Part shown: positions 4,097 to 37,818 of the stretch, one piece after another | Layout of the letters: each line of letters starts with the position of its first letter | Position numbering within the stretch: the stretch's first letter is position 1 | Assembly (NCBI GenBank): GCA_038087875.1 | Contig: CM075992.1 | Coordinates: 9,550,001-9,614,000, forward strand | DNA length: 64,000 nucleotides | From: Malacoraja senta | Taxonomy: Eukaryota | Reading direction: 5' to 3' | The notes under the pieces: generated by a model | What the model saw: the letters and a program-made list of their open reading frames with translations, nothing else | The model's database searches: none | What the model was told of the DNA's origin: nothing | Translations under genes and position numbers: made by a program

Positions 4097-5255
4097 GGTT
4101 CATCTGCTACCTCAAAGGTAGGAGTTTCTCGACTAACATAGGCAACTCATTCTCCTCCCCAGCTAATCTCTGCTGTGGGGTTCCACAAGGTTCCATCCTT
4201 GGCCCCATTCTCTTCTCCCTGTATATGCTCCCCTTAGGCCAAGTCATTGAAAGGCACGGCATTTCCTTCCATTGCTACGCAGACGATACACAACTCTATC
4301 TCCCCCTGAAGCCCCAAAAACAATCAAATCTGTTTAACCTTACCCACTGCCTCGAGGATATAAAGTGTTGGATGGCCCAGAACTTCCGCCAACTAAACGA
4401 GAGTAAGTCTGAGGTCATCCTTCTCGGCCCCTCGGACTCAATCAAAATGATAGCAGGCAGCCTTGGAAGCCTTACCCCACTACTCCAACCTCACGTCAAA
4501 AACCTTGGCGTGATATTTGACTCAGCACTGAGATTTGACAAACAAGTCAATGCCGTGGTAAAAGCTAGCTTCTTTCAGCTTCAGACGATAGCTAAAATAA
4601 AACAATTCCTCCAGTTTGATGGCCCGGGAAAGATCATCCACACATTCATCTCCTCCCGCCTAGATTACTGCAACTCCCTTTACACTGGCATCAGCCAATC
4701 TTCCCCGTCCCGCCTGCAACTGGTCCAAAACGCCGCAGCGAGACTCCTGACGGGCACCCGAAAAAGGGACCACATCACCCCGATCCTGGCCTCTCTCCAC
4801 TGGCTCCCTGTGCGGTTCCGTATACATTTCAAGATCCTCCTCCATGTTACAAAGCCCTCAATGGGCTAGCCCCCACCTACATAAAAAGTCTTCTCACCCA
4901 CCACTCCACCTCCAGGCCCCTCAGATCAGCCGACTTGGGGTTGCTGAATATCCCGCGGTCTAGGCATAAGCTCAGGGGCGACCGCGCCTTTGCGGTTGCA
5001 GCTCCTAGACTGTGGAACAGCATCCCCCTTCCCATCAGAACCGCCCCCTCCATCGACTCTTTTAAGTCAAGACTAAAGACTTATCTATACTCCCAAGCCT
5101 TTCCTGACGTCCTCTGAGTGAGGGCTACACGTATATATGTATGTAGTTTGTTTTGTTTGTGCTATTCTTATAACAAATGTAAAGCACTTTGGCCAACGAG
5201 AGTTATTTTTTAAATGTGCTATATAAATAAATGTGACTTGACTTGACTTGACTTG
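4097..5255 (+). mobile_element. L2-clade LINE 3' fragment (RT domain to 3' tail)
   Basis: GVPQGSILGPILFSLYMLPLG...HCYADDTQLYL...SRLDYCNSL...LQLVQNAAARLL...LHWLPV...GDRAF, with a frameshift near 4848. Ends in AATAAA + (GACTT)n. Inserted into a CR1 fragment. Confidence 0.9.
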
Positions 5256-5754
5256 AGGGGCAGCTTTGTCACACAGAGGGTGGTGGGTGTATGAGACGAG
5301 CTGCCAGAGGAGGATCGGTAGTTGAGGCAGGTACAATAACAGCATTTTAAAGATATTTGGAGAATGGATAGGAAAGATTTTGAGGGATATGGCACAAACA
5401 TGGGCCAATGGGACCAGCTTAAGTGGGGCATGTTGGTCGGCATGGATGAGCTGGGCTGAAGGGCCTGTTTTCATGCTGTATAGCTCTATGACTTCAATGG
5501 AGCTGTGCGGGCCAAGTATTTTACGTGGAGAGTGGTGGGGGGCAGGAAGGCTTTGACAGGGGTAATGATGGAGGCAGATATGATAGCAGTGATTAACAGA
5601 CTTGTAGATAATGGAAATGATGGAATTGCAAGGGATGGATTGATTTGGATCCTGTGTAAGCAGTCTAACTTGGCATCATGTTCGGCACAAAAATTGTGTG
5701 CTGAAGGACCCGTTCTTTCCACGTCTATGTTCTGTGACTAGATTCTGTGACTCT

Positions 5755-6048
5755 AGGCGACTCCGGGCTGTCAAAGCTGCGACAGCCAGACATAACAACA
5801 GTTTTTATCCACGAGAAGTTGCTCTACTCAACAGCCAAAAATCTGTAGCCTCCCTTTGATCTGGTATTTTGTTGGTTCACATGCTTGATCAATGGTGTTT
5901 TATCATTAATGTCTTATTATTATTCATGTTTAATGTTTTCTGAGTCATTCGTAACTATCACTGAAAGTCATGTTGTTACTTGTGGGCGGAGCGCCAAGGC
6001 AAATTCCTTGTATGTGAATACTTGGCCAATAAACTTACTTACTTACTT
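5755..6048 (+). mobile_element. Rex1/Babar-type LINE 3' end
   Basis: Encodes ..RLRAVKAATARHNNSFYP.. and ends CCAATAAA(CTTA)n. A near-identical copy lies at 46955-47247. Confidence 0.6.
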
Positions 6049-6344
6049 AGATATTTGCATTTAAGCAGAGTTCCACCCAGGTACAAGAGAACAAGATGTG
6101 CAAGAACACCAGTGATAGACACAAAGTAAAGAGGGTTGGGGGGAACTAGAGGTAGGAAGAGGTCAGCACAAATAAAGATGACCAAGGGAGGGTGGAGCCC
6201 ACAATGGTCTATTGTTGCCTGGGGAAGCAGTGATCTTCTTCTTCTTGCGAAAGAAACATAAACCAAAGTAATAGTTAGATCCCAAGCCGGGTGTTGAGCA
6301 GCCAGGTTGTTGTCTCTGAGTCAATAGACAATAGACAATAGGTG

Positions 6345-6398
6345 GGGGTGGAAGATTGCAACCTTCACGTGGTCCGCCTTGTTTCGACTAATGCAATC
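6345..6398 (+). ncRNA. Predicted minimal HDV/CPEB3-like self-cleaving ribozyme
   Basis: P1 GGGGUGG(6345-51)/CCGCCUU(6374-80); P2 GAUUGCA(6354-60)/UGCAAUC(6392-98); P3 ACC/GGU; L3 UUCACGU; GU after P1; vestigial P4; J4/2 CUAA with putative catalytic C6388. Confidence 0.75.
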
Positions 6399-6484
6399 AA
6401 CTCGACGTGCACAAACGGAAGATCAAATAGAACAAGTTGTCCAACAACTTTAGGCTGTGCACGCCACACAAAAGAAGAAGAAGA
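6345..6484 (+). mobile_element. ~140-bp non-autonomous retroposon with (GAA)n tail (likely Vingi-mobilised)
   Basis: TSD CAATAGGTG at 6336-6344 and 6485-6493. G-run 5' end and AAGAAGAAGAAGA tail. Confidence 0.8.
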
Positions 6485-7418
6485 CAATAGGTGCAGGAGT
6501 AGGCCATTCGGCCCTTCGAGCCAGCACCGCCATTCAATGTGATCATGGCTGATCATTCCCAATCAGTACCCCGTTCCTGCCTTCTCCCCATATCCCCTGA
6601 CTCTGCTATTTTTAAGAGCCCTATCCAGCTCTCTCTTGAAAGCATCCAGAGAACCTGCCTCCACCGCCCTCTGAGGCAGAGAATTCCACAGACTCACCAC
6701 TCTCTGTGAGAGTCAATGTCTGCCAGGCCCTGACACAGCTCCATTTGGCGGGTGGTAGAGCGGGGACCCAGAGATGACATGGCTGTCTGTCTGTTGTTGT
6801 GCTCTGCATTCACAGGCTGGGCTCTGGCGGAGCCCCCATCTCCACATGCTGACATTGAAACACCCAACTCCAGTACCAAGTCTGTTGAGCTTCACCCATG
6901 CTCCTCCAGGGAGCTCAGACCCTGGACAGCTTTTATCTGGTGAATAGATGTAGCTGTCCAGGGTCTGACATCCTCAGAGAAGAAGTGATAACGAAGGGAT
7001 ACAGCGATGCATCCAGCCAACAATGGACCATTGTGAGCTCCACCCTCCCGTGTTCATCTTTTACCGGCCCTGATTTGTTCTGGCCTTTTCCTACCTCTAG
7101 TTACCTCCCCCTCTCTATTTTCAGTCTGAAGAACAGTTCCGACCCGAATCGCCACCCATCCTTTTCCTCCAGAGATGCTGCCTGACCTGCTGAGTTACTC
7201 CAGCACTTTGTGTCTATCTTCAGTATAAACCAGCATCTGCAGTTCCTTCCTGGTCTGGTTTGGCAAATATTAGTGTACATACTCTGAAAGTATCCATTGT
7301 GTATTCAGTTCTGGGCACTTTTGGGCCAGAGATCTTGCCTCATGTCGGGAACACAAAGACCAATGAAAAGCTGATTTTATTGCTAACAAGATCTCCAAAA
7401 ATTTTAGAAATTTGCAGT

Positions 7419-7874
7419 CAATAGACAATAGACAATAGGTGCAGGAGTAGGCCATTTGGCCCTTCGAGCCAGCACCGCCATTCAATGTGATCATGGCTGA
7501 TCATCCCCAATCAGTACCCCGTTCCTGCCTTCTCCCCATATCCCCTGACTCCGCTATCTTTAAGAGCCCCATCTAACTCTCTCTTGAAAGCATCCAGAGA
7601 ACCGGCCTCCACTGCCCTCTGAGGCAGAGAATTCCACAGACTCACCACTCTCTGTGAGGAAAAGTATTTCCTTGGCTCCGTTCTAAATGGCTTACTCCTT
7701 ATTCTTAAACTGTGGCCCCTGGTTCTGGACTCCCCTAACATCGGGAACATGTTTCCTGCCTCTAGTGTGTCCAAGCCCTTAACAATCTTAAATGTTTCTA
7801 TGAGATCCCCTCTCATCCTTCTAAACTCCAGAATGTACAAGCCCAGCTGCTCCATTCTCTCAGCATATGACAGT
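7419..7874 (-). mobile_element. CR1/HER1-like LINE 3' fragment
   Basis: ORF 7511-7855 [44 protein letters not shown], with a 7-mer repeat tail. Confidence 0.9.
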
Positions 7875-8032
7875 CAGTTGCTAGGAATCTTGGCGTTGAG
7901 TATCAGTGGGATGTTCTGTCAGAGGGAGCCAGATGGTGATGTGGGGAACAAGATGGTTAACAGCAGTGGGCGAGTTGGGTCTCCCACCCTTCTAAATGGT
8001 CTCACAGGAACTTCTATATCCAGGAGTGTGGG

Positions 8033-11107: not shown

Positions 11108-11371
<264 letters not shown>

Positions 11372-11384
11372 TAAGTTGGAGTGA

Positions 11385-11624
<240 letters not shown>

Positions 11625-11735
11625 TGAGTATCTCAGGGCAGGTTGGTGTTACAGCCGCAGAGCTCTGCTCCAGGGCCAAGGAGTGGGCATTTGCTGGCTT
11701 CAGAAGGGTCAACCACCTCGGTGGGTCTGGACGTA

Positions 11736-19256: not shown

Positions 19257-19865
19257 GTCTAAACCTTTCCTATCCATATATCAGTCCCAATGACTTTTTA
19301 CAAATCATAATTGTATTCTCCTATTACTTCCTCTGGCAGCTCTTTCCAGATATGGACTACCCCCTGAGTGTAAGATTTTCCCTCAGGTCCCTTTTAAATC
19401 TCACAACTCTTGTTTTTAAGCTTGTTTTACATTCCTCTCGCCTGAGAGAAAGACTGAGCGTTCACTTTATCCGTGCCCCTCTTGATCTTGTACACCTCAA
19501 TAAAGTCACCCCTCAGGCTCCTACGCTCTAAAGAAAACATTCCCAGGGTGTCCAACCTCTCCCTATAACTCAAGTCTGCGGGAAAAGTCCTGGTGAATCT
19601 CTTCTGCATCCTGCCGGGCCCTGGGACAACAGGAATGAGGATGATTTGGTTGTTCCAGGAACTGGCAAAAAACCCACTTCATGCTGTGCTGTGATAATTC
19701 CACGATCCTATTGACTGGGTGTCAGGGTGATGGGGAGAGTGGGGTTGAGAAATAGAGGTAGATCAGCCATGATTGAATGGCAGAGTTGACTTGATGGGCT
19801 GAATGGCCTAATTCTGCTCCTAGAACCATGAACTTATGACCTGCTCCTCTCTCTCTCTCTCTTAG

Positions 19866-19980
19866 ACAAAACTACAAGGACTACTCCATGGAATCCAGGA
19901 CTCTCTTCCGGATACACGCTGCTCTTTCCAAACTGAAAGCAGAGAAAGATGAGAATGGGCTGGAAGGAACTGCTCTCTAG
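19866..19980 (+). CDS. TTC39A: TTC39A-like, terminal coding exon
   Basis: (CT)n tract + TTAG acceptor (19865). In frame with the previous exon: (K)QNYKDYSMESRTLFRIHAALSKLKAEKDENGLEGTAL* (TTC39 motif NYK.YS.ESR..FRI.AA). Repeat-poor 3' UTR-like DNA follows to about 21000. Confidence 0.92.
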
Positions 19981-25175: not shown

Positions 25176-25556
25176 TCTGATGCCAACATGCCAGTGACCT
25201 AGATCAACACTGGGCCGTCTAAATCCACAGGACTTCCAGAGAAAAGCCACATACCTGCTTCCCCTCACTCCCCAATTAGCTCTTGGATTCATTAGGCAAG
25301 TTCTGAGACTGTGGGTCAGTTGTGCAACCTGTTACTCAAGGGAGACAGCTACCAGAAACCCTCTCTGGTTAATTGCCAATAAATATGGCCATCTGGTGCC
25401 AAGAGCAAATTAAGTTAAATTACAAATGCCCGGGGCCACCAGGATTGGAACGTCTCAGATACATGAAACCCTCTCATTTACTTATAGTGGTTCATGCAGA
25501 TTCATGGAAATGGGTTGCAGTTATTCCAGATCCTGGGTGGAGATGAGAACATGGTT

Positions 25557-25848
25557 TTAAGGTGTGGCTGCTGCCGTCACCGCTTCGCTCCCGCCCGCTT
25601 CCACGTTCTTCCGCCTCTTTATCAGCTTCAGTTTCTTCTTCTCCTCCTTCTCCAGCTCCTTCACCATATCCTGGAACTTGGCGTTGCGCGGGTCGATGCT
25701 GTAGCCAAATCGCTCGCGGGCTTCAGCCAGCAGCCGGTCGCGCCTGGCCTTCTCCTCCCTCTGCTTCACCTTGGCCTCCCGCTTCTCCCGCCTCCACTCT
25801 TCAACCATCTTCGGCATCTTGGCCATGTTTGCCGCAATCAGCTTTTGT
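25557..25848 (-). CDS. GADD45GIP1: GADD45GIP1 (CRIF1 / mitoribosomal mL64), last coding exon
   Basis: Pyrimidine tract + CAG acceptor (25849-25851). Encodes (R)QKLIAANMAKMPKMVEEWRREK..RRDRLLAEARERFGYSIDPRNAKFQDMVKELEKEEKKKLK..*, matching CRIF1 MAKMP.M..W / LAEA.E..GY.VDPR...FQ. Confidence 0.92.
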
Positions 25849-26233
25849 CTGGCGGGGGGGAAGGAGAGAGATGCGTGATCGCGACACTTCAATCAACCCA
25901 ACAACTTTCAGCACTCCTCTGTAAATCCATGTCTGCCCATAGCCCACCTCAGTATCACCCGTCCACCACAACCCACGAAGAATTACTTTTCTAATCCCCA
26001 TTATCAATCTCATCGTTGTCCTTTCCTTCTCTCCAGGGATGCTGCCTGCCTGTCCCACTGAGTTACTCCAGCTTTTTGTGTCTATCTTCATTGTCCTGTT
26101 CCCTCCCAGGCCTTAAAGCACCTCCATTCCAGCTTCGATCAGTTAAAAGATGCAGCCAGGAAACAGGCCCACCATCCATCGCCTGTTCACACTAGTTCTA
26201 TGTTTCCCACTTACTCATCCACTCCCAAGGGAT

Positions 26234-33191: not shown

Positions 33192-34178
33192 TTATATATT
33201 TGCAGATTCTAAAACTCTTTCTGCAAATAACACAGGTTCTGCTAGCGGCTTGTGGTAGAACGTTTGGAACGTTTTCTCCATGGACCACCCTGCTGTAGCC
33301 AGGATGTGGTCCAGTGGTACGTCCATCCTTTTAGCCGCCGATGTGGATGCTGTCCTGGTGGAGTGAGATGTATATACGTCAGTATCTACTCCAGCAGCTT
33401 CCAGTACCTGCTTGAGCGATCTTGAGATGGTTTGGCTCGACACCCGACCATGAGGTTTCTTGTGCCTGACCCATAAGGCTTTTTCTCTCCCTCGGGAATC
33501 TCTTGTTGTGTTGATGTAAGTGAGTAGGTGAGTCATGACACACAACTGTGGGTCAGGTGGGTATGCCCGGAAATCCATAACTAGGCCTGAAGTTCCAGGC
33601 CTGCTCTGCTTTACCAGCTCCTGAATGGTGAATGAGACCCGGTCTGGTGTTATAACCATGTTGTCCAGTCGCAGTAAGTGGAGGGACTGGACTCTTTGTG
33701 CTGAGACTAGTGCCATCAGCATGACCGTTTTCAGGGTTAGCTGTTCCAGGGTGAGAGACCTGGCTGGTGACCATCCCCTTAGGTATGTCAGGACCACACT
33801 GACATCCCAGATTTGGGTGTACCTAGGTCTAGGGGGGTTGGAGTTGAATATACCCCTCATGAGTTTGATCACCAGCGGGTGAGACCCTATGGCCTGTTGT
33901 CCTGGTACTTGTTTTAAGTAGGCTGACAGAGCACTTCTGGCAGTATTGATGGCGCTGTAGCTCAGTCCTTCATTATGGTGAATGCCAGTCAGGAACTCCA
34001 GTACATTGGTTATGGTTGTAGACGAGTATGTTGTCCCAGTAGTCGAGCAGTATCTTTCCCACTTCCTGATGCTCGATAGGTATTGTTTCCTGGTGGACAT
34101 ACGGTGGGACGCTGTCATCGTGTTGATGGTCATGTCAGACAATCCCAGGCCCAGCAGTGGTCTTTTCATAATCTGCAA
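33192..34178 (-). CDS. DIRS tyrosine recombinase (intact 328-aa ORF)
   Basis: N-terminal core-binding-like region (SAINTARSALS..HPLV), catalytic R (SAQRVQSL), HSTR, AGW and TFQTFY. Confidence 0.92.
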   Translation of the reverse strand: MQIMKRPLLGLGLSDMTINTMTASHRMSTRKQYLSSIRKWERYCSTTGTTYSSTTITNVLEFLTGIHHNEGLSYSAINTARSALSAYLKQVPGQQAIGSHPLVIKLMRGIFNSNPPRPRYTQIWDVSVVLTYLRGWSPARSLTLEQLTLKTVMLMALVSAQRVQSLHLLRLDNMVITPDRVSFTIQELVKQSRPGTSGLVMDFRAYPPDPQLCVMTHLLTYINTTRDSRGREKALWVRHKKPHGRVSSQTISRSLKQVLEAAGVDTDVYTSHSTRTASTSAAKRMDVPLDHILATAGWSMEKTFQTFYHKPLAEPVLFAERVLESANI

Positions 34179-36231
34179 CCCAGTAGGTTAATTTTGTCAT
34201 GGCATGGATGACTTATGCCTGATACCGGGTGAGTCAATAGGTCTGGGCTACTGGGAAAGGTCATAGGAGTTTTGATGACCATGTCGAGGACCACTGGGAA
34301 CCATGGCTGTGTAGGCCAGTCGGGTACTATCAAAATACCTGAAGCAGAGTCCATCTGTATTTTGCGTAGTACCCTACTGATGAGGCAGAAGGGGGGAAAA
34401 GCATAAAATAAATAGTTTCCCCAGTTCAGCGCGAATGCATCTATCGCTGCTGCCTCAGGGTCTGGTTCCCAAGCGACATACATTGGTACCTGGTGATTTA
34501 GTCTGGATGCAAAGAGATCGATATCTGGTGTGCCATATTGCTTTGTAATTTTAGCAAAAGCTCTAGGATTTAACATCCATTCGGTGTTATCATTGAATTT
34601 GCGTGACCTGGTGTCTGCCACTGTATTTAGCTTACCTGGTAGGTAAGTTGCTGTTAGCCAAATATGTCTATCGACACACCATTGCCAGATTGTGTTGACC
34701 AAATTGTCACATGATATCGATTTTATTCCACCCATATGGTTAATATAGGCCACCACCGTGGTATTATCAATTTGTAAACGAACATGCAAATGGTGCATAT
34801 TCGTAGAATATGCTTTTAAACCATAAAACGCACCCAACATTTCCAAATAATTTATGCCCAGTGTTTGTAGTAAAGATGATTCTAGGTTAGTCCATCTACC
34901 ACCTGTGCTGGATATGGTAGTAGTTGCTCCCCAGCCTTGAGCACTGGCATCTGTTAGTATAGTTAATGTTGGGTTATTGATGATGATAGGGCTGGAACTA
35001 TGCCAAATGTGCTCTATCCACCACTGTAACTCTGATATTGCTTCAATGGGTAATTTCATGGTTCGGTCAAAGTGACCTGCATGTCGTTTTAACGCCTGTA
35101 CTTTTGCCCATTGTAGGTTTTGATAGTGCAGGGGTCCAAATTGTGTAGCTGGAAATGCTGCTACCATTTTGCCAATTACTCTTGCCATTTGTCGGATGGT
35201 TGGTCGATTGTTAACCATTAAATCGTTACATGTCTGTGCCAATTCTGCTGCTTTATCTTTTGGCAACGTTACAGACATGTGGACTGAGTTAATTGTGAAT
35301 CCCAGATAGTCCATTGTTGTGGATGGCGTCAACTTAGAATTATCTGGATGCAAGACAAATCCCAGGGTTTCAAACAATTGTTTGGTAGCTAATACAGCTG
35401 ATTTCGCCAACTCCATGGTTTTGCTTACTATTAGAATATCATCAAGATATGCCATGACAATATGTCTCTGTTTTCTTAATGTTGCCAAGGCTGGTTTTAA
35501 TATCTTGGTAAATAGTCTTGGGGCTGATGTTAACCCATTAGGCAACGCATTAAACTGCCATAGTTGCCCCATCCAGGTAAATTTCAGGTATATGCGATGA
35601 CCCTTTTGAATGGGTACTGTATAGTAAGCATCTTTTAAATCAATGCTTGCCATAAAGTATCCTTTGGAAATCAGTAGTTTGGCAGTTACAAATGTACAGG
35701 CACTGATGTGGGAGTGCCTGAATTCCCTTGGCGAGACTGCTCCATTTTGAAATGTACATACTTAACAAAGGTATTTAGTGAGGTTAAATCAATGATGATG
35801 CGACATGCACCATCTTTTTTGTTTTTGGTACATATATTTGAGACAAATTCCAAAGGTTCATGTTTGGATTTCTCAATGATACCCTTTGTAAGTAACCTCA
35901 CCAGTTCTGCTTGACCCTCTAGTTTTTCTTTGACTGAGAGGGTAAATACCCTTTGGGGTACATGCTGAACTGGTGGCATATTTTCTTGAATGAACTCTAT
36001 ATTGTATCCCCGAATACTGTTAAGTATATAACTATCATTCGTGACAGACCTCCATGCTTCAATGAACAGGTGTAATCTCCCCCCTGTTAGTACAGTTCCC
36101 CCACTTTTTATATGCTGGTAGGAACCAGACCCACCTTCATCCATAGTTATGGGAGTGTTCCTTTCTTCAGTTTCTTCATCCGTCGTTGTACTGCTGGATG
36201 TACTGCTGGTTGGGGGTGGCGCATTTTCCAT
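34166..36231 (-). pseudogene. DIRS pol ORF: reverse transcriptase - RNase H - DNA adenine methyltransferase-like domain, frameshifted by a 44-bp insertion
   Basis: GGRL..F..AW, RIIIDL, SIDLKDAYY, LPNGL..APRLFTK, YLDD; RNase H TDAS..GWGA, INYLE, DNTTVVAYIN, AD.RSR; MT-like IDLFAS and YAFPPF. Insert at 35696-35739. Confidence 0.9.
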
Positions 36232-36248
36232 GGGGTCCGCTCTGGGCC

Positions 36249-37818
36249 CTAGCCTAAAAAAGTCTTTCGGGGATGGTTTGCGGTTCCCGAGCTTTCACCA
36301 GTCCCATAAGTTTGACGTCGACTGGTGGACGCGGTAAGGTACTGCCGTCTGGGCTGTGTGGGTCTGCTCGTTCCGGGGCCTGCCCTCATGAGGCCGAATG
36401 CTTTGGACTCTTCCTCCAGGTCTTTCACTTGTTTTGTCAAGTCCTTTCCAAATAACAGGATCTGTGGCTCTGAGGCCGGTGTTTTACACAGTCCTGCATA
36501 TTTGGGATTGAGGGCAGGTCTTATTATCTCCTTGCGGAGGTTGTTTATCTCATATTGAGTGTTGCACAGCAGAGCCAGAGTGTCTTGCTGGTTGGTGGTC
36601 ATATCCACCCCATCCACGGAACGAGCATAGGATGTTATCCCTGTCATCAGGAGCTTGAGGATACGCTGTAATTTTAGCTCCTGGTTCCGGATACTCAATA
36701 CAATACAATACAATTTATTTGTCTTTAGGACAAATTTGTCATTTGGACCCCGTTGAGGTCCAAACGAAATGTCGTTTCTGCAGCCATACATTACAAAACG
36801 AAGAAGACCCGAGACACAACACGATTTACACATACATCCATCACAGCGCTGTGATGGAACGCAAAAAATCGTATCTCTCCACTGCACTCCCCCCCCCCCC
36901 CTGATGTCAGAGTCAAAGTCAAAGCCCCCGGCGGGCGATGGTGATTATCCCGCGGCCATTAAAGCCACACCGGGTAATGCAAGGTCGCGCACCGGGTCTT
37001 GGTGTTAGAGCCCCGGCGCGCGCCCGCAAAGTCCGGCGGCCATTCCAAGCCGCGCGGGGGGATAAAGCCCCGCTCCAGGTGCTCTTCAACCCCGCAACTC
37101 GGGCGGGAGAACTCTGTCCAACATACCCCCAGATTTGGTTGTTAACGGCCGGTACGTTGAGTGAACTGCAGTTCTCCGGAGGCGAGTAGAGTTCTAGTGC
37201 CTCATTGACTACCTGTTCTTGTAGGGGTTTGAGGGACAGGTGGTTAATGCTGGCCGCCAGTTTTGGCTGCAACGGCCGTCCTGCTCGTGGTGTAGCCACG
37301 TAGCGATTCACCACACCCAGCAGCTCTTCCTGGTCCTGTACCCCAAGCGTACTCCCGATATCTTCGGCCAATGACCCCTGTTCCTGACCAGCCCAGCCCT
37401 GGTCGCCAATGCTGCCCTCGGCTGGGGGGGAAGCGATGGCCAGTGCATTGTAAGGCACTGGTGTGGGAGTGCCTGAGTTCCCTTGGCGAGACTGCTCCAG
37501 CTCCCGAAGCAAGTCTCGCTGGAGCATTTGCTCCATGAGCCTTTCCATGCGGCTACCTCTGCCGCTCTCAGGCGGAGAGTCCTCCTCATCCGAGTTATCA
37601 GATATCACCGGCCGGTCAGTTTTTCGTTTTGATTTACCTCCAGTCCGCTGTTGTTAGTCGGGCTGCGCTAGCGGTACTGGGCTTGGCTCGGTCTCAATGA
37701 TTGTGGACCGCAGCATGTGCGGTCCAGGTGCCGCCTCTCGCCCCCCACTGATGGGACACTCCCGTTCTGTTGGAGTCGAACGGGGGGCGGTCTTTTTCCC
37801 TTGCCGTGCTTTGCTCAT
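36249..37818 (-). pseudogene. DIRS ORF1 (gag-like), disrupted
   Basis: ATG at 37818, in-frame TAA near 37654, then ..LNVPAVNNQIWGYVGQS | IRNQELKLQR..LRKEIIRPALNPKY..LLFGKDL.. rejoining across the 36697-37110 insertion. Confidence 0.75.
36697..37110 (-). mobile_element. Rex/Babar-type 3' fragment with (TATTG)n tail, inserted in DIRS gag
   Basis: ACTC duplicated at 36693-96 and 37111-14; terminal hairpin TTTGGACC..GGTCCAAA; related copy at 9816-10045. Confidence 0.65.

Follow-up and report, generated by a model that had tools for sequence, protein, structure and literature searches.

The window, a 64,000-nucleotide stretch of the Malacoraja senta genome, carries on its + strand a 140-base retroposon at 6345..6484, one of thousands of copies in that genome. 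It is flanked by a 12 bp target-site duplication (left copy 6333..6344, right copy 6482..6493, both +) and ends in a (GAA)n tail (6471..6481, +). An earlier note, made from the letters of this DNA, had described both: the tail was as claimed and is common to the element and its parent LINE, and the left duplication does end at 6344, but the duplication is longer than had been given. Because tail and target duplication overlap, the 3' limit is ambiguous up to 6484; the 12 bp duplication places the end probably at 6481, so that the short non-autonomous element, composed of the 5' end and the 3' end of a LINE of Vingi type (family B), would span 6345..6481 (+). The element was inserted into the microsatellite tail of a 3' fragment of another LINE (6323..6710, -, right limit approximate), which is putatively of CR1 type by its motifs. 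The neighbouring fragment at 6233..6322 (-), which the earlier note had called Vingi, is indeed a Vingi 3' fragment, but it belongs to a different family (A) and is not the element's partner.

The element lies in sense orientation in an intron of a TTC39-family gene, the gene being assigned at the family level. One exon lies left of the window (window -382..-263) and others lie to the right of the element, near 11270-11390, 11500-11630 and 19860-19980; the intronic, + strand position proposed earlier is thus supported by flanking exons. Elsewhere in the window, a further LINE has left its 3' end, with the tail (TTAC)n, at 5760-6050 (+); it is presumably Rex1/Babar-like by its motif. Tyrosine-recombinase-like, RT/RNase H-like and gag-like ORFs at 33192-36944 (-) look, again by their motifs, like a DIRS-type element. 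A minus-strand coding exon with many charged residues occupies 25488-25994, downstream of and opposite the TTC39-family gene.

By alignment, the element is an internally deleted Vingi-type LINE of family B that keeps the parent's 5' and 3' ends. Positions 6346..6431 (+; element positions 2-87, with an 8-nt insertion) align to the 5' UTR of the family B copies L248, L249 and L247. Positions 6437..6480 (+; element positions 93-136) align to the 3' end of L248 and L249 and comprise the last ORF codons, the stop (6451-6453), the 3' UTR and the start of the tail. Family B was found with a pattern for the element's 3' UTR lying behind coding sequence, and its ORF stops inside the shared segment; its 5' ends were found by a protein search with the endonuclease of the closest database relative (P0075). 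These 5' ends match element positions 2-72 at 90-94% and then run into an endonuclease ORF. L248 carries both element ends between one target duplication, and in the older short variants L045 and L200 less of the parent is missing where the two ends meet. The comparison with full-length Vingi ends that the earlier note had proposed ties both ends of the element to one LINE. Among the 4 long family B copies examined, none had an intact ORF. Family A was rejected as the parent: its head shares only the core with the element, and its 3' UTR only the last bases. It is a 3.2-kb LINE that begins with the fold of the element, though its stems differ and its P4 is long; a first candidate for this 5' end was discarded as an unrelated repeat upstream of a truncated copy.

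A simple pattern search found no RNA polymerase III (Pol III) A or B box in the element, and its head is a LINE 5' UTR, which places it outside the strict definition of a SINE (small-RNA-derived head with A and B boxes). It is a bipartite LINE derivative, or SIDE, having both ends from an autonomous LINE and the middle deleted, with the marks of retrotransposition: target duplications of variable length and a simple-repeat tail like the parent's. Of the earlier description as a ribozyme-SINE lacking a Pol III head, the missing boxes stand, whereas the head is the parent's own 5' UTR and not an independent one. The 3' end shared with a Vingi-type LINE agrees with the proposed reliance on Vingi machinery and suggests that the family B protein would mobilise the element in trans.

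Pfam searches of 7 proteins found APE and/or RT domains and no RNase H, and the parent has a single ORF of ~1000 aa with APE and RT, without RNase H, in ~3 kb. APE and RT without RNase H is the architecture given for Vingi in the available text of PMC13708176. In an RT tree with a midpoint root, the families and their homologues form one clade against three distant rows (100/100); the rows include no sequence named Vingi, and family G was omitted as too short. The name Vingi for these families is accordingly our putative assignment, from architecture. Open frames of 986-1014 aa are present in L251:633-3674 (-), L254:634-3657 (-) and L253:660-3617 (+), and by such frames families D and E appear to have been recently active. 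Amplification as part of a larger repeat is seen for an endonuclease-region fragment of family A (many copies; L173-L182 and other unplaced contigs), and family G has been similarly amplified.

The genome searched amounts to 1.94 Gb. A DNA search with the element gave 1,504 candidates, of which the 40 scored were 97-100% identical, and exact patterns for the ribozyme core and the 3' end occurred at least 4,719 and at least 5,201 times, respectively (both lower bounds; 0 in the reversed controls). Thirty heads taken in positional order comprised 28 short elements with a tail, one LINE start and one that was cut short. Of 101 distinct copies, 86 have target duplications; these measure 7-17 bp, with a mode of 12 bp (32/86). 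When copies were picked by their 3' 80 bases alone, 26 of 29 distinct ones aligned from position 1 and the remaining three from positions 3, 6 and 37; these 29 are the best-matching copies, and hence young. Among 83 copies, bases -8..-1 are mixed, G stands at +1 in 75, and G at -1 (20/83) is not in excess. The genome-wide copies thus start at G1 with target duplications, as expected from the earlier claim that the element's 5' boundary equals the predicted cut site. Assembled contigs of four sequencing runs contain the element, and many pieces begin at 6345 with dissimilar flanks; the run matches (23 rows, 12 studies) are all assembled contigs, which cannot show RNA ends or expression. A contig of run X15 holds a partial tandem of the short element.

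The first 54 nt of the element (6345..6398, +) can be folded as an HDV-like double pseudoknot without P4, with the predicted cut 5' of G6345. The predicted parts are P1 (6345-6351/6374-6380), J1/2 (6352-6353), P2 (6354-6360/6392-6398), P3 (6361-6363/6371-6373), L3 (6364-6370), J1/4 (GU, 6381-6382), a 5-nt loop in place of P4 (6383-6387) and J4/2 (6388-6391), which contains the predicted catalytic C6388 (C44 of the element). Every HDV-fold part listed in the earlier note was found at its place. P1, P2, P3 and P1.1 follow one another in the nested double-pseudoknot order of HDV-like ribozymes, and, again as in that class, a G6345.U6380 pair stands at +1 in P1 and C6388 opens J4/2. P1.1 consists of one C-G pair plus U.U, as does that of the CPEB3 ribozyme (PMC9901934, available part). 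P1 has the 7 bp and the opening G.U pair previously described, but its composition in this copy has to be corrected to 4 Watson-Crick and 3 G.U pairs; in P1 of the parent LINE, only the pair at the cut site is a G.U and the other 6 are Watson-Crick. Most copies do not have U6379, which is present in 20/83 copies in a sample biased toward this copy and in 4/100 heads of a positional listing counted by hand. The parent head, that of family B, likewise lacks P4.

A pattern descriptor of the HDV fold, a search that had also been suggested, matched once in the 64-kb window, at the element head itself, and gave 0 matches on both strands of 30 Markov-simulated 64-kb sequences. An Rfam scan of 5000-8000 at E 10 returned 7 weak matches, none to a ribozyme and none over the element, and the head gave no match at the 35-bit cut-off of the Rfam CPEB3_ribozyme model (RF00622). 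The minimum-energy fold of the element is no stabler than shuffles (z 0.13), computed with a program that cannot form pseudoknots; in this fold the upstream flank can pair with G6345, in 0.9% of the ensemble. On the pseudoknot model, the element head likely self-cleaves just 5' of G6345.

The endonuclease search that gave the family B 5' ends also brought up further families. The same fold heads seven Vingi families in this genome (A-G) and two from metagenome contigs (L270 and L304). Across these nine families, 159/171 cells are paired. Changes on both sides are seen in 15 of 19 columns, those of P3 and of the P1.1 pair among them; a shuffled control gave 105 ± 4.6 paired cells, with a maximum of 124 in 20,000. 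Because the parser demands P3 pairing and chooses whichever P1/P2 registers pair best, it inflates the paired fraction, which is to be read as an upper view. With this bias, the stems of the homologous heads show compensating changes, as in HDV-like ribozymes. Parsing succeeded for 17/25 representative loci, the other 8 being decayed or truncated. P3 is formed by four different triplet pairs among the nine families, and the family F head (L260:514) is a natural compensating variant with U-A in place of C-G at P1.1 and a different end of L3. Independently of the parser, the first strand of P1 sits at the target-duplication boundary in families with unrelated stems.

The catalytic-position C is present in all nine family heads while the stems differ. 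In a decoy test on 160 loci, a second independent point, distinct matches numbered 12 with C in the catalytic place, 0 with A, 2 with G and 2 with T; three of the G and T matches are re-parses of the same heads and one is a decayed copy. Within the element, C44 is kept in 95/100 listed heads (hand count), and the following base, normally bulged, is G in 56, T in 25, A in 17 and C in 2 of 100. Selection on C44 among copies was not detected, as its losses (5/100) are no rarer than changes at other CpG sites. Viral contigs gave 29 pattern matches, with no relative among them. From metagenome contigs, 80 of 518 loci were kept, most of them without an intact 5' end; the strict descriptor gave 3 matches (one element) and a relaxed parse added L304.

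Several further heads were noted. In the metagenome contig L278:336-666, a Vingi-type head seems, by eye, to keep the HDV fold with a long hairpin in L3. The full-length copies L251, L254 and L183 carry tandem partial repeats of the head at their 5' ends, a pattern that would fit an enzyme running off a sharp RNA end and starting again. A second short ribozyme-headed family (L377-L386 and L403; e.g. G000:C1:6207740-6208220, minus) measures 136-177 nt to the tail in 9 copies and has target duplications. Its head lacks P4 and differs in stem sequence, with a P1 that looks 6 bp long or bulged; a 5'-3' stem is present, and the 3' end resembles that of Vingi family E. No parent bearing this head was found.

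In the element, bases just 3' of the ribozyme (6404..6413, +) can pair with the 3' UTR (6456..6465, +). This stem was first seen by eye. It was examined in silico in eight families by pairing a 24-base window just after the ribozyme with a 30-base window just before the tail, sizes that were set after a noisier trial with 45 nt, in which the cognate pair was best in its row for 3/6 families. Cognate 5'/3' pairs summed to -96.9 kcal/mol, against -65.0 kcal/mol when permuted, and only 5 of 40,320 permutations were as good; the cognate pair was best in its row for 5/8 families and in its column for 6/8. Taken singly, against 1000 shuffles each, the result was clear for D (1 shuffle as good) and E (0), marginal for A (38) and B (30), and not above shuffles for C (449), F (171), M1 (78) and M2 (197). 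The stem of the short element has 10 bp, nine of which are kept in most of 86 copies, and an A.C mismatch in the parent's stem is a G-C pair in 24 of the 86. These pairing energies suggest that ribozyme-adjacent bases can pair with the 3' UTR in most families. If the enzyme does recognise such a stem, a short derivative must keep both ends. Two-ended short derivatives were reported without a cause by Kojima (2018), and the available text names only RTE, Ingi, Vingi and R2 as yielding them and leaves the reason open (PMC5786205); the stem, if real, would offer a testable answer.

We consider it quite probable that the element is a deleted Vingi copy whose HDV-type head likely self-cleaves and whose freed RNA is recopied by the parent enzyme. 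A host transcript would read through a copy of the element, which would not need a promoter of its own; the head would cut just before G1 (G6345), freeing a 140-base RNA; the bases after the ribozyme would clasp the 3' UTR, and the enzyme may recognise this clasp; and the family B protein would then start at the (GAA)n tail and copy the RNA into a new site. While origin, boundaries and fold are shown by the sequences, the steps of cutting, read-through and trans-mobilisation are proposed by analogy with R2 SIDEs and with L1Tc/NARTc, whose ribozymes are the precedents (PMC3414825 and PMC6765202, in the parts available).

The family head could cleave while the copy described here is impaired by its flank and by the additional G.U pair next to the cut site, leaving the TTC39-family pre-mRNA unaffected. 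This is compatible with the reading preferred here, and we give it slightly less than an even chance. [quoted passage not shown] Against impairment, the U6379 change still leaves a wobble pair, and L002, inserted elsewhere between a target duplication of its own, holds 139 bases identical to this copy; a source carrying the U6379-type variant was thus apparently still copied.

The main rival to cleavage is that the HDV fold is a relic serving as an internal promoter, as 5' protection or as a protein site, that the P4-less form does not cut or cuts too slowly, and that the start at G1 is a transcription start. A uniform 5' end is equally expected from an internal promoter; the 77 nt at the start of L1Tc are described as internal promoter plus ribozyme (PMC8256844), and the R2 ribozyme fold is reported also to protect the 5' end (PMC13708176; both sources in part). 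The head is unusually reduced, with P4 absent and one Watson-Crick pair in P1.1, and the commonest subfamily has a weaker P1 than the parent. Yet the catalytic C is kept in nine family heads despite the change in stems, the 5' boundary equals the predicted cut site in families whose stems are unrelated, and P4-less HDV-like ribozymes from phages are active in vitro (PMC10879173, available part). The lack of excess G at -1, which a copied cap might give, points weakly the same way. We regard a non-cutting relic as improbable. That the element is a standard Pol III SINE, or that its fold arose by chance, to which the shortness, the many copies and the lack of an Rfam match might point, is barely credible, given that there is no A or B box pattern, that two LINE ends account for nearly the whole length, that the descriptor found nothing in simulated sequence and that covariation is seen.

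The element resembles several known systems. Drosophila R2 SIDEs and R2/R1 SIDEs are likewise non-autonomous and deleted, with a 5' HDV-like ribozyme, a LINE 3' end and no Pol III head (Eickbush and Eickbush, 2012; PMC3414825). As described in the available text, these are ~530 nt long, whereas the element has ~140 nt, an APE-type Vingi parent, dispersed insertions, thousands of copies in a vertebrate, and a predicted ribozyme without P4. NARTc/RIME and L1Tc include short derivatives of an APE-type LINE that share the parent's 5' HDV-like ribozyme (PMC6765202, PMC8256844, PMC5786205; also PMC3185411, PMC3383444, PMC4035085), and Ingi is described as the sister clade of Vingi; the element differs in having a parent without RNase H and an animal host. 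Bipartite Vingi derivatives, with 5' and 3' ends joined by internal deletion, are on record (Kojima, 2018, PMC5786205; PMC4494074, parts available). In minimal (P4-less) and theta HDV-like ribozymes, a 54-nt fold with a short loop replacing P4 is found as in the element (Kienbeck, 2024, PMC10879173). The accessible part of that paper places nearly 99% of the minimal forms in gut phages and names no eukaryotic matches in a human, mouse and protist screen; the element's fold, by contrast, stands at the start of a retroelement in an animal, and its P1.1 has a single pair, as in CPEB3.

Ribozyme-headed deleted retroelements (PMC3414825) and bipartite Vingi derivatives (PMC5786205, PMC4494074) are thus already known, as far as the available text of these papers goes. 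We found no report of a Vingi ribozyme, a Vingi 5'-3' stem, an animal P4-less HDV-like ribozyme or a CPEB3 donor in a literature search whose coverage did not extend to Repbase, Dfam, patents, supplements and some key papers, and a 2026 preprint on widespread ribozymes does not mention Vingi; the novelty of these four points is provisional. What matters here is not so much this copy as the clade-wide Vingi ribozyme, the P4-less form, the stem and the CPEB3 lead. If the reading is correct, Vingi would be one more LINE clade that carries ribozymes, and >4,700 sites of a vertebrate genome, many presumably intronic, would hold a minimal HDV-like ribozyme without P4. Vingi-1 UTRs are used in RNA-only gene-insertion tools (PMC13708176, available part), and the design of their templates would be affected by a self-trimming head and a 5'-3' stem.

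The mammalian CPEB3 ribozyme (RF00622) has the same L3 and GU junction as the element. The element itself does not match the RF00622 model, but other Vingi-type heads in this genome reach up to 64 bits against it. The cut-off of 35 bits is passed by the heads of families D (40.7-64.2 bits), I, J, K and N2 and of L270, a complete element with a target duplication (55.6 bits). Genome-wide, 39 matches over the cut-off were obtained among 51 listed (59 scored); 27 of the 51 were examined in sequence, and endonuclease-coding sequence follows 10 of the first 20. By eye, L270 agrees with the RF00622 consensus at 35/38 positions up to J1/4 and at 10/11 of the last positions, and family J, taken as the majority of five decayed copies, at 57-58 of the 63 positions that remain when the L4 loop is set aside and the P4 stem is counted; one compensated pair makes up two of its differences.

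Vingi is therefore the likely donor of the mammalian CPEB3 ribozyme, judging from these sequence matches. In the available text of Bendixsen (2021), that ribozyme is single-copy, conserved and described as absent outside mammals, its deeper ancestry being untraceable for want of an outgroup (PMC8233481); Vingi heads, if related, would supply non-mammalian relatives. The human genome contains Vingi traces, X12_LINE (PMC5753468). Taking all families jointly, we somewhat favour the view that the Vingi clade opens with an HDV-type ribozyme and a 3'-clasping strand, that this module suffices for a parasite of 130-170 bases, that P4 has been lost from it on at least two occasions in this genome, and that the CPEB3 'memory' ribozyme is a domesticated head.

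The likeness could instead reflect convergence in a constrained fold, or a third element that was donor to both, which we consider doubtful. R2 and HDV share 21/27 core bases without clear descent (PMC8256844, in part), and the closest match, family J, was not tied to an ORF in the 5 copies examined, four of them extended by 1 kb. However, the identity to CPEB3 sits in the stems, where compensating changes are tolerated by the CPEB3 ribozyme (PMC9901934, available part) and which vary freely among Vingi heads. The first strands of P1, P2 and P3 in L270, a complete Vingi-type element, are identical to the RF00622 consensus at 17/17 positions (by eye; chance from column frequencies 3e-8), whereas the nine Vingi heads share 4-13 of those 17 among themselves. 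In the RT tree, L270 is the sister of D (99/97), and families A, B, C, E, F, G, H and L304 share the fold yet stay below the Rfam CPEB3 cut-off.

The family J copies (L387, L390, L394, L396 and L400) are old and decayed and match RF00622 in all four stems; they share only ~40 bases after the ribozyme, and so may represent a very short element or 5' fragments. CPEB3-like heads are also present in family K (L388, L389, L395, L401) and family I (L391, L397, L398, L402), and since L402 runs into an endonuclease-like frame, family I would be the 5' end of a LINE.
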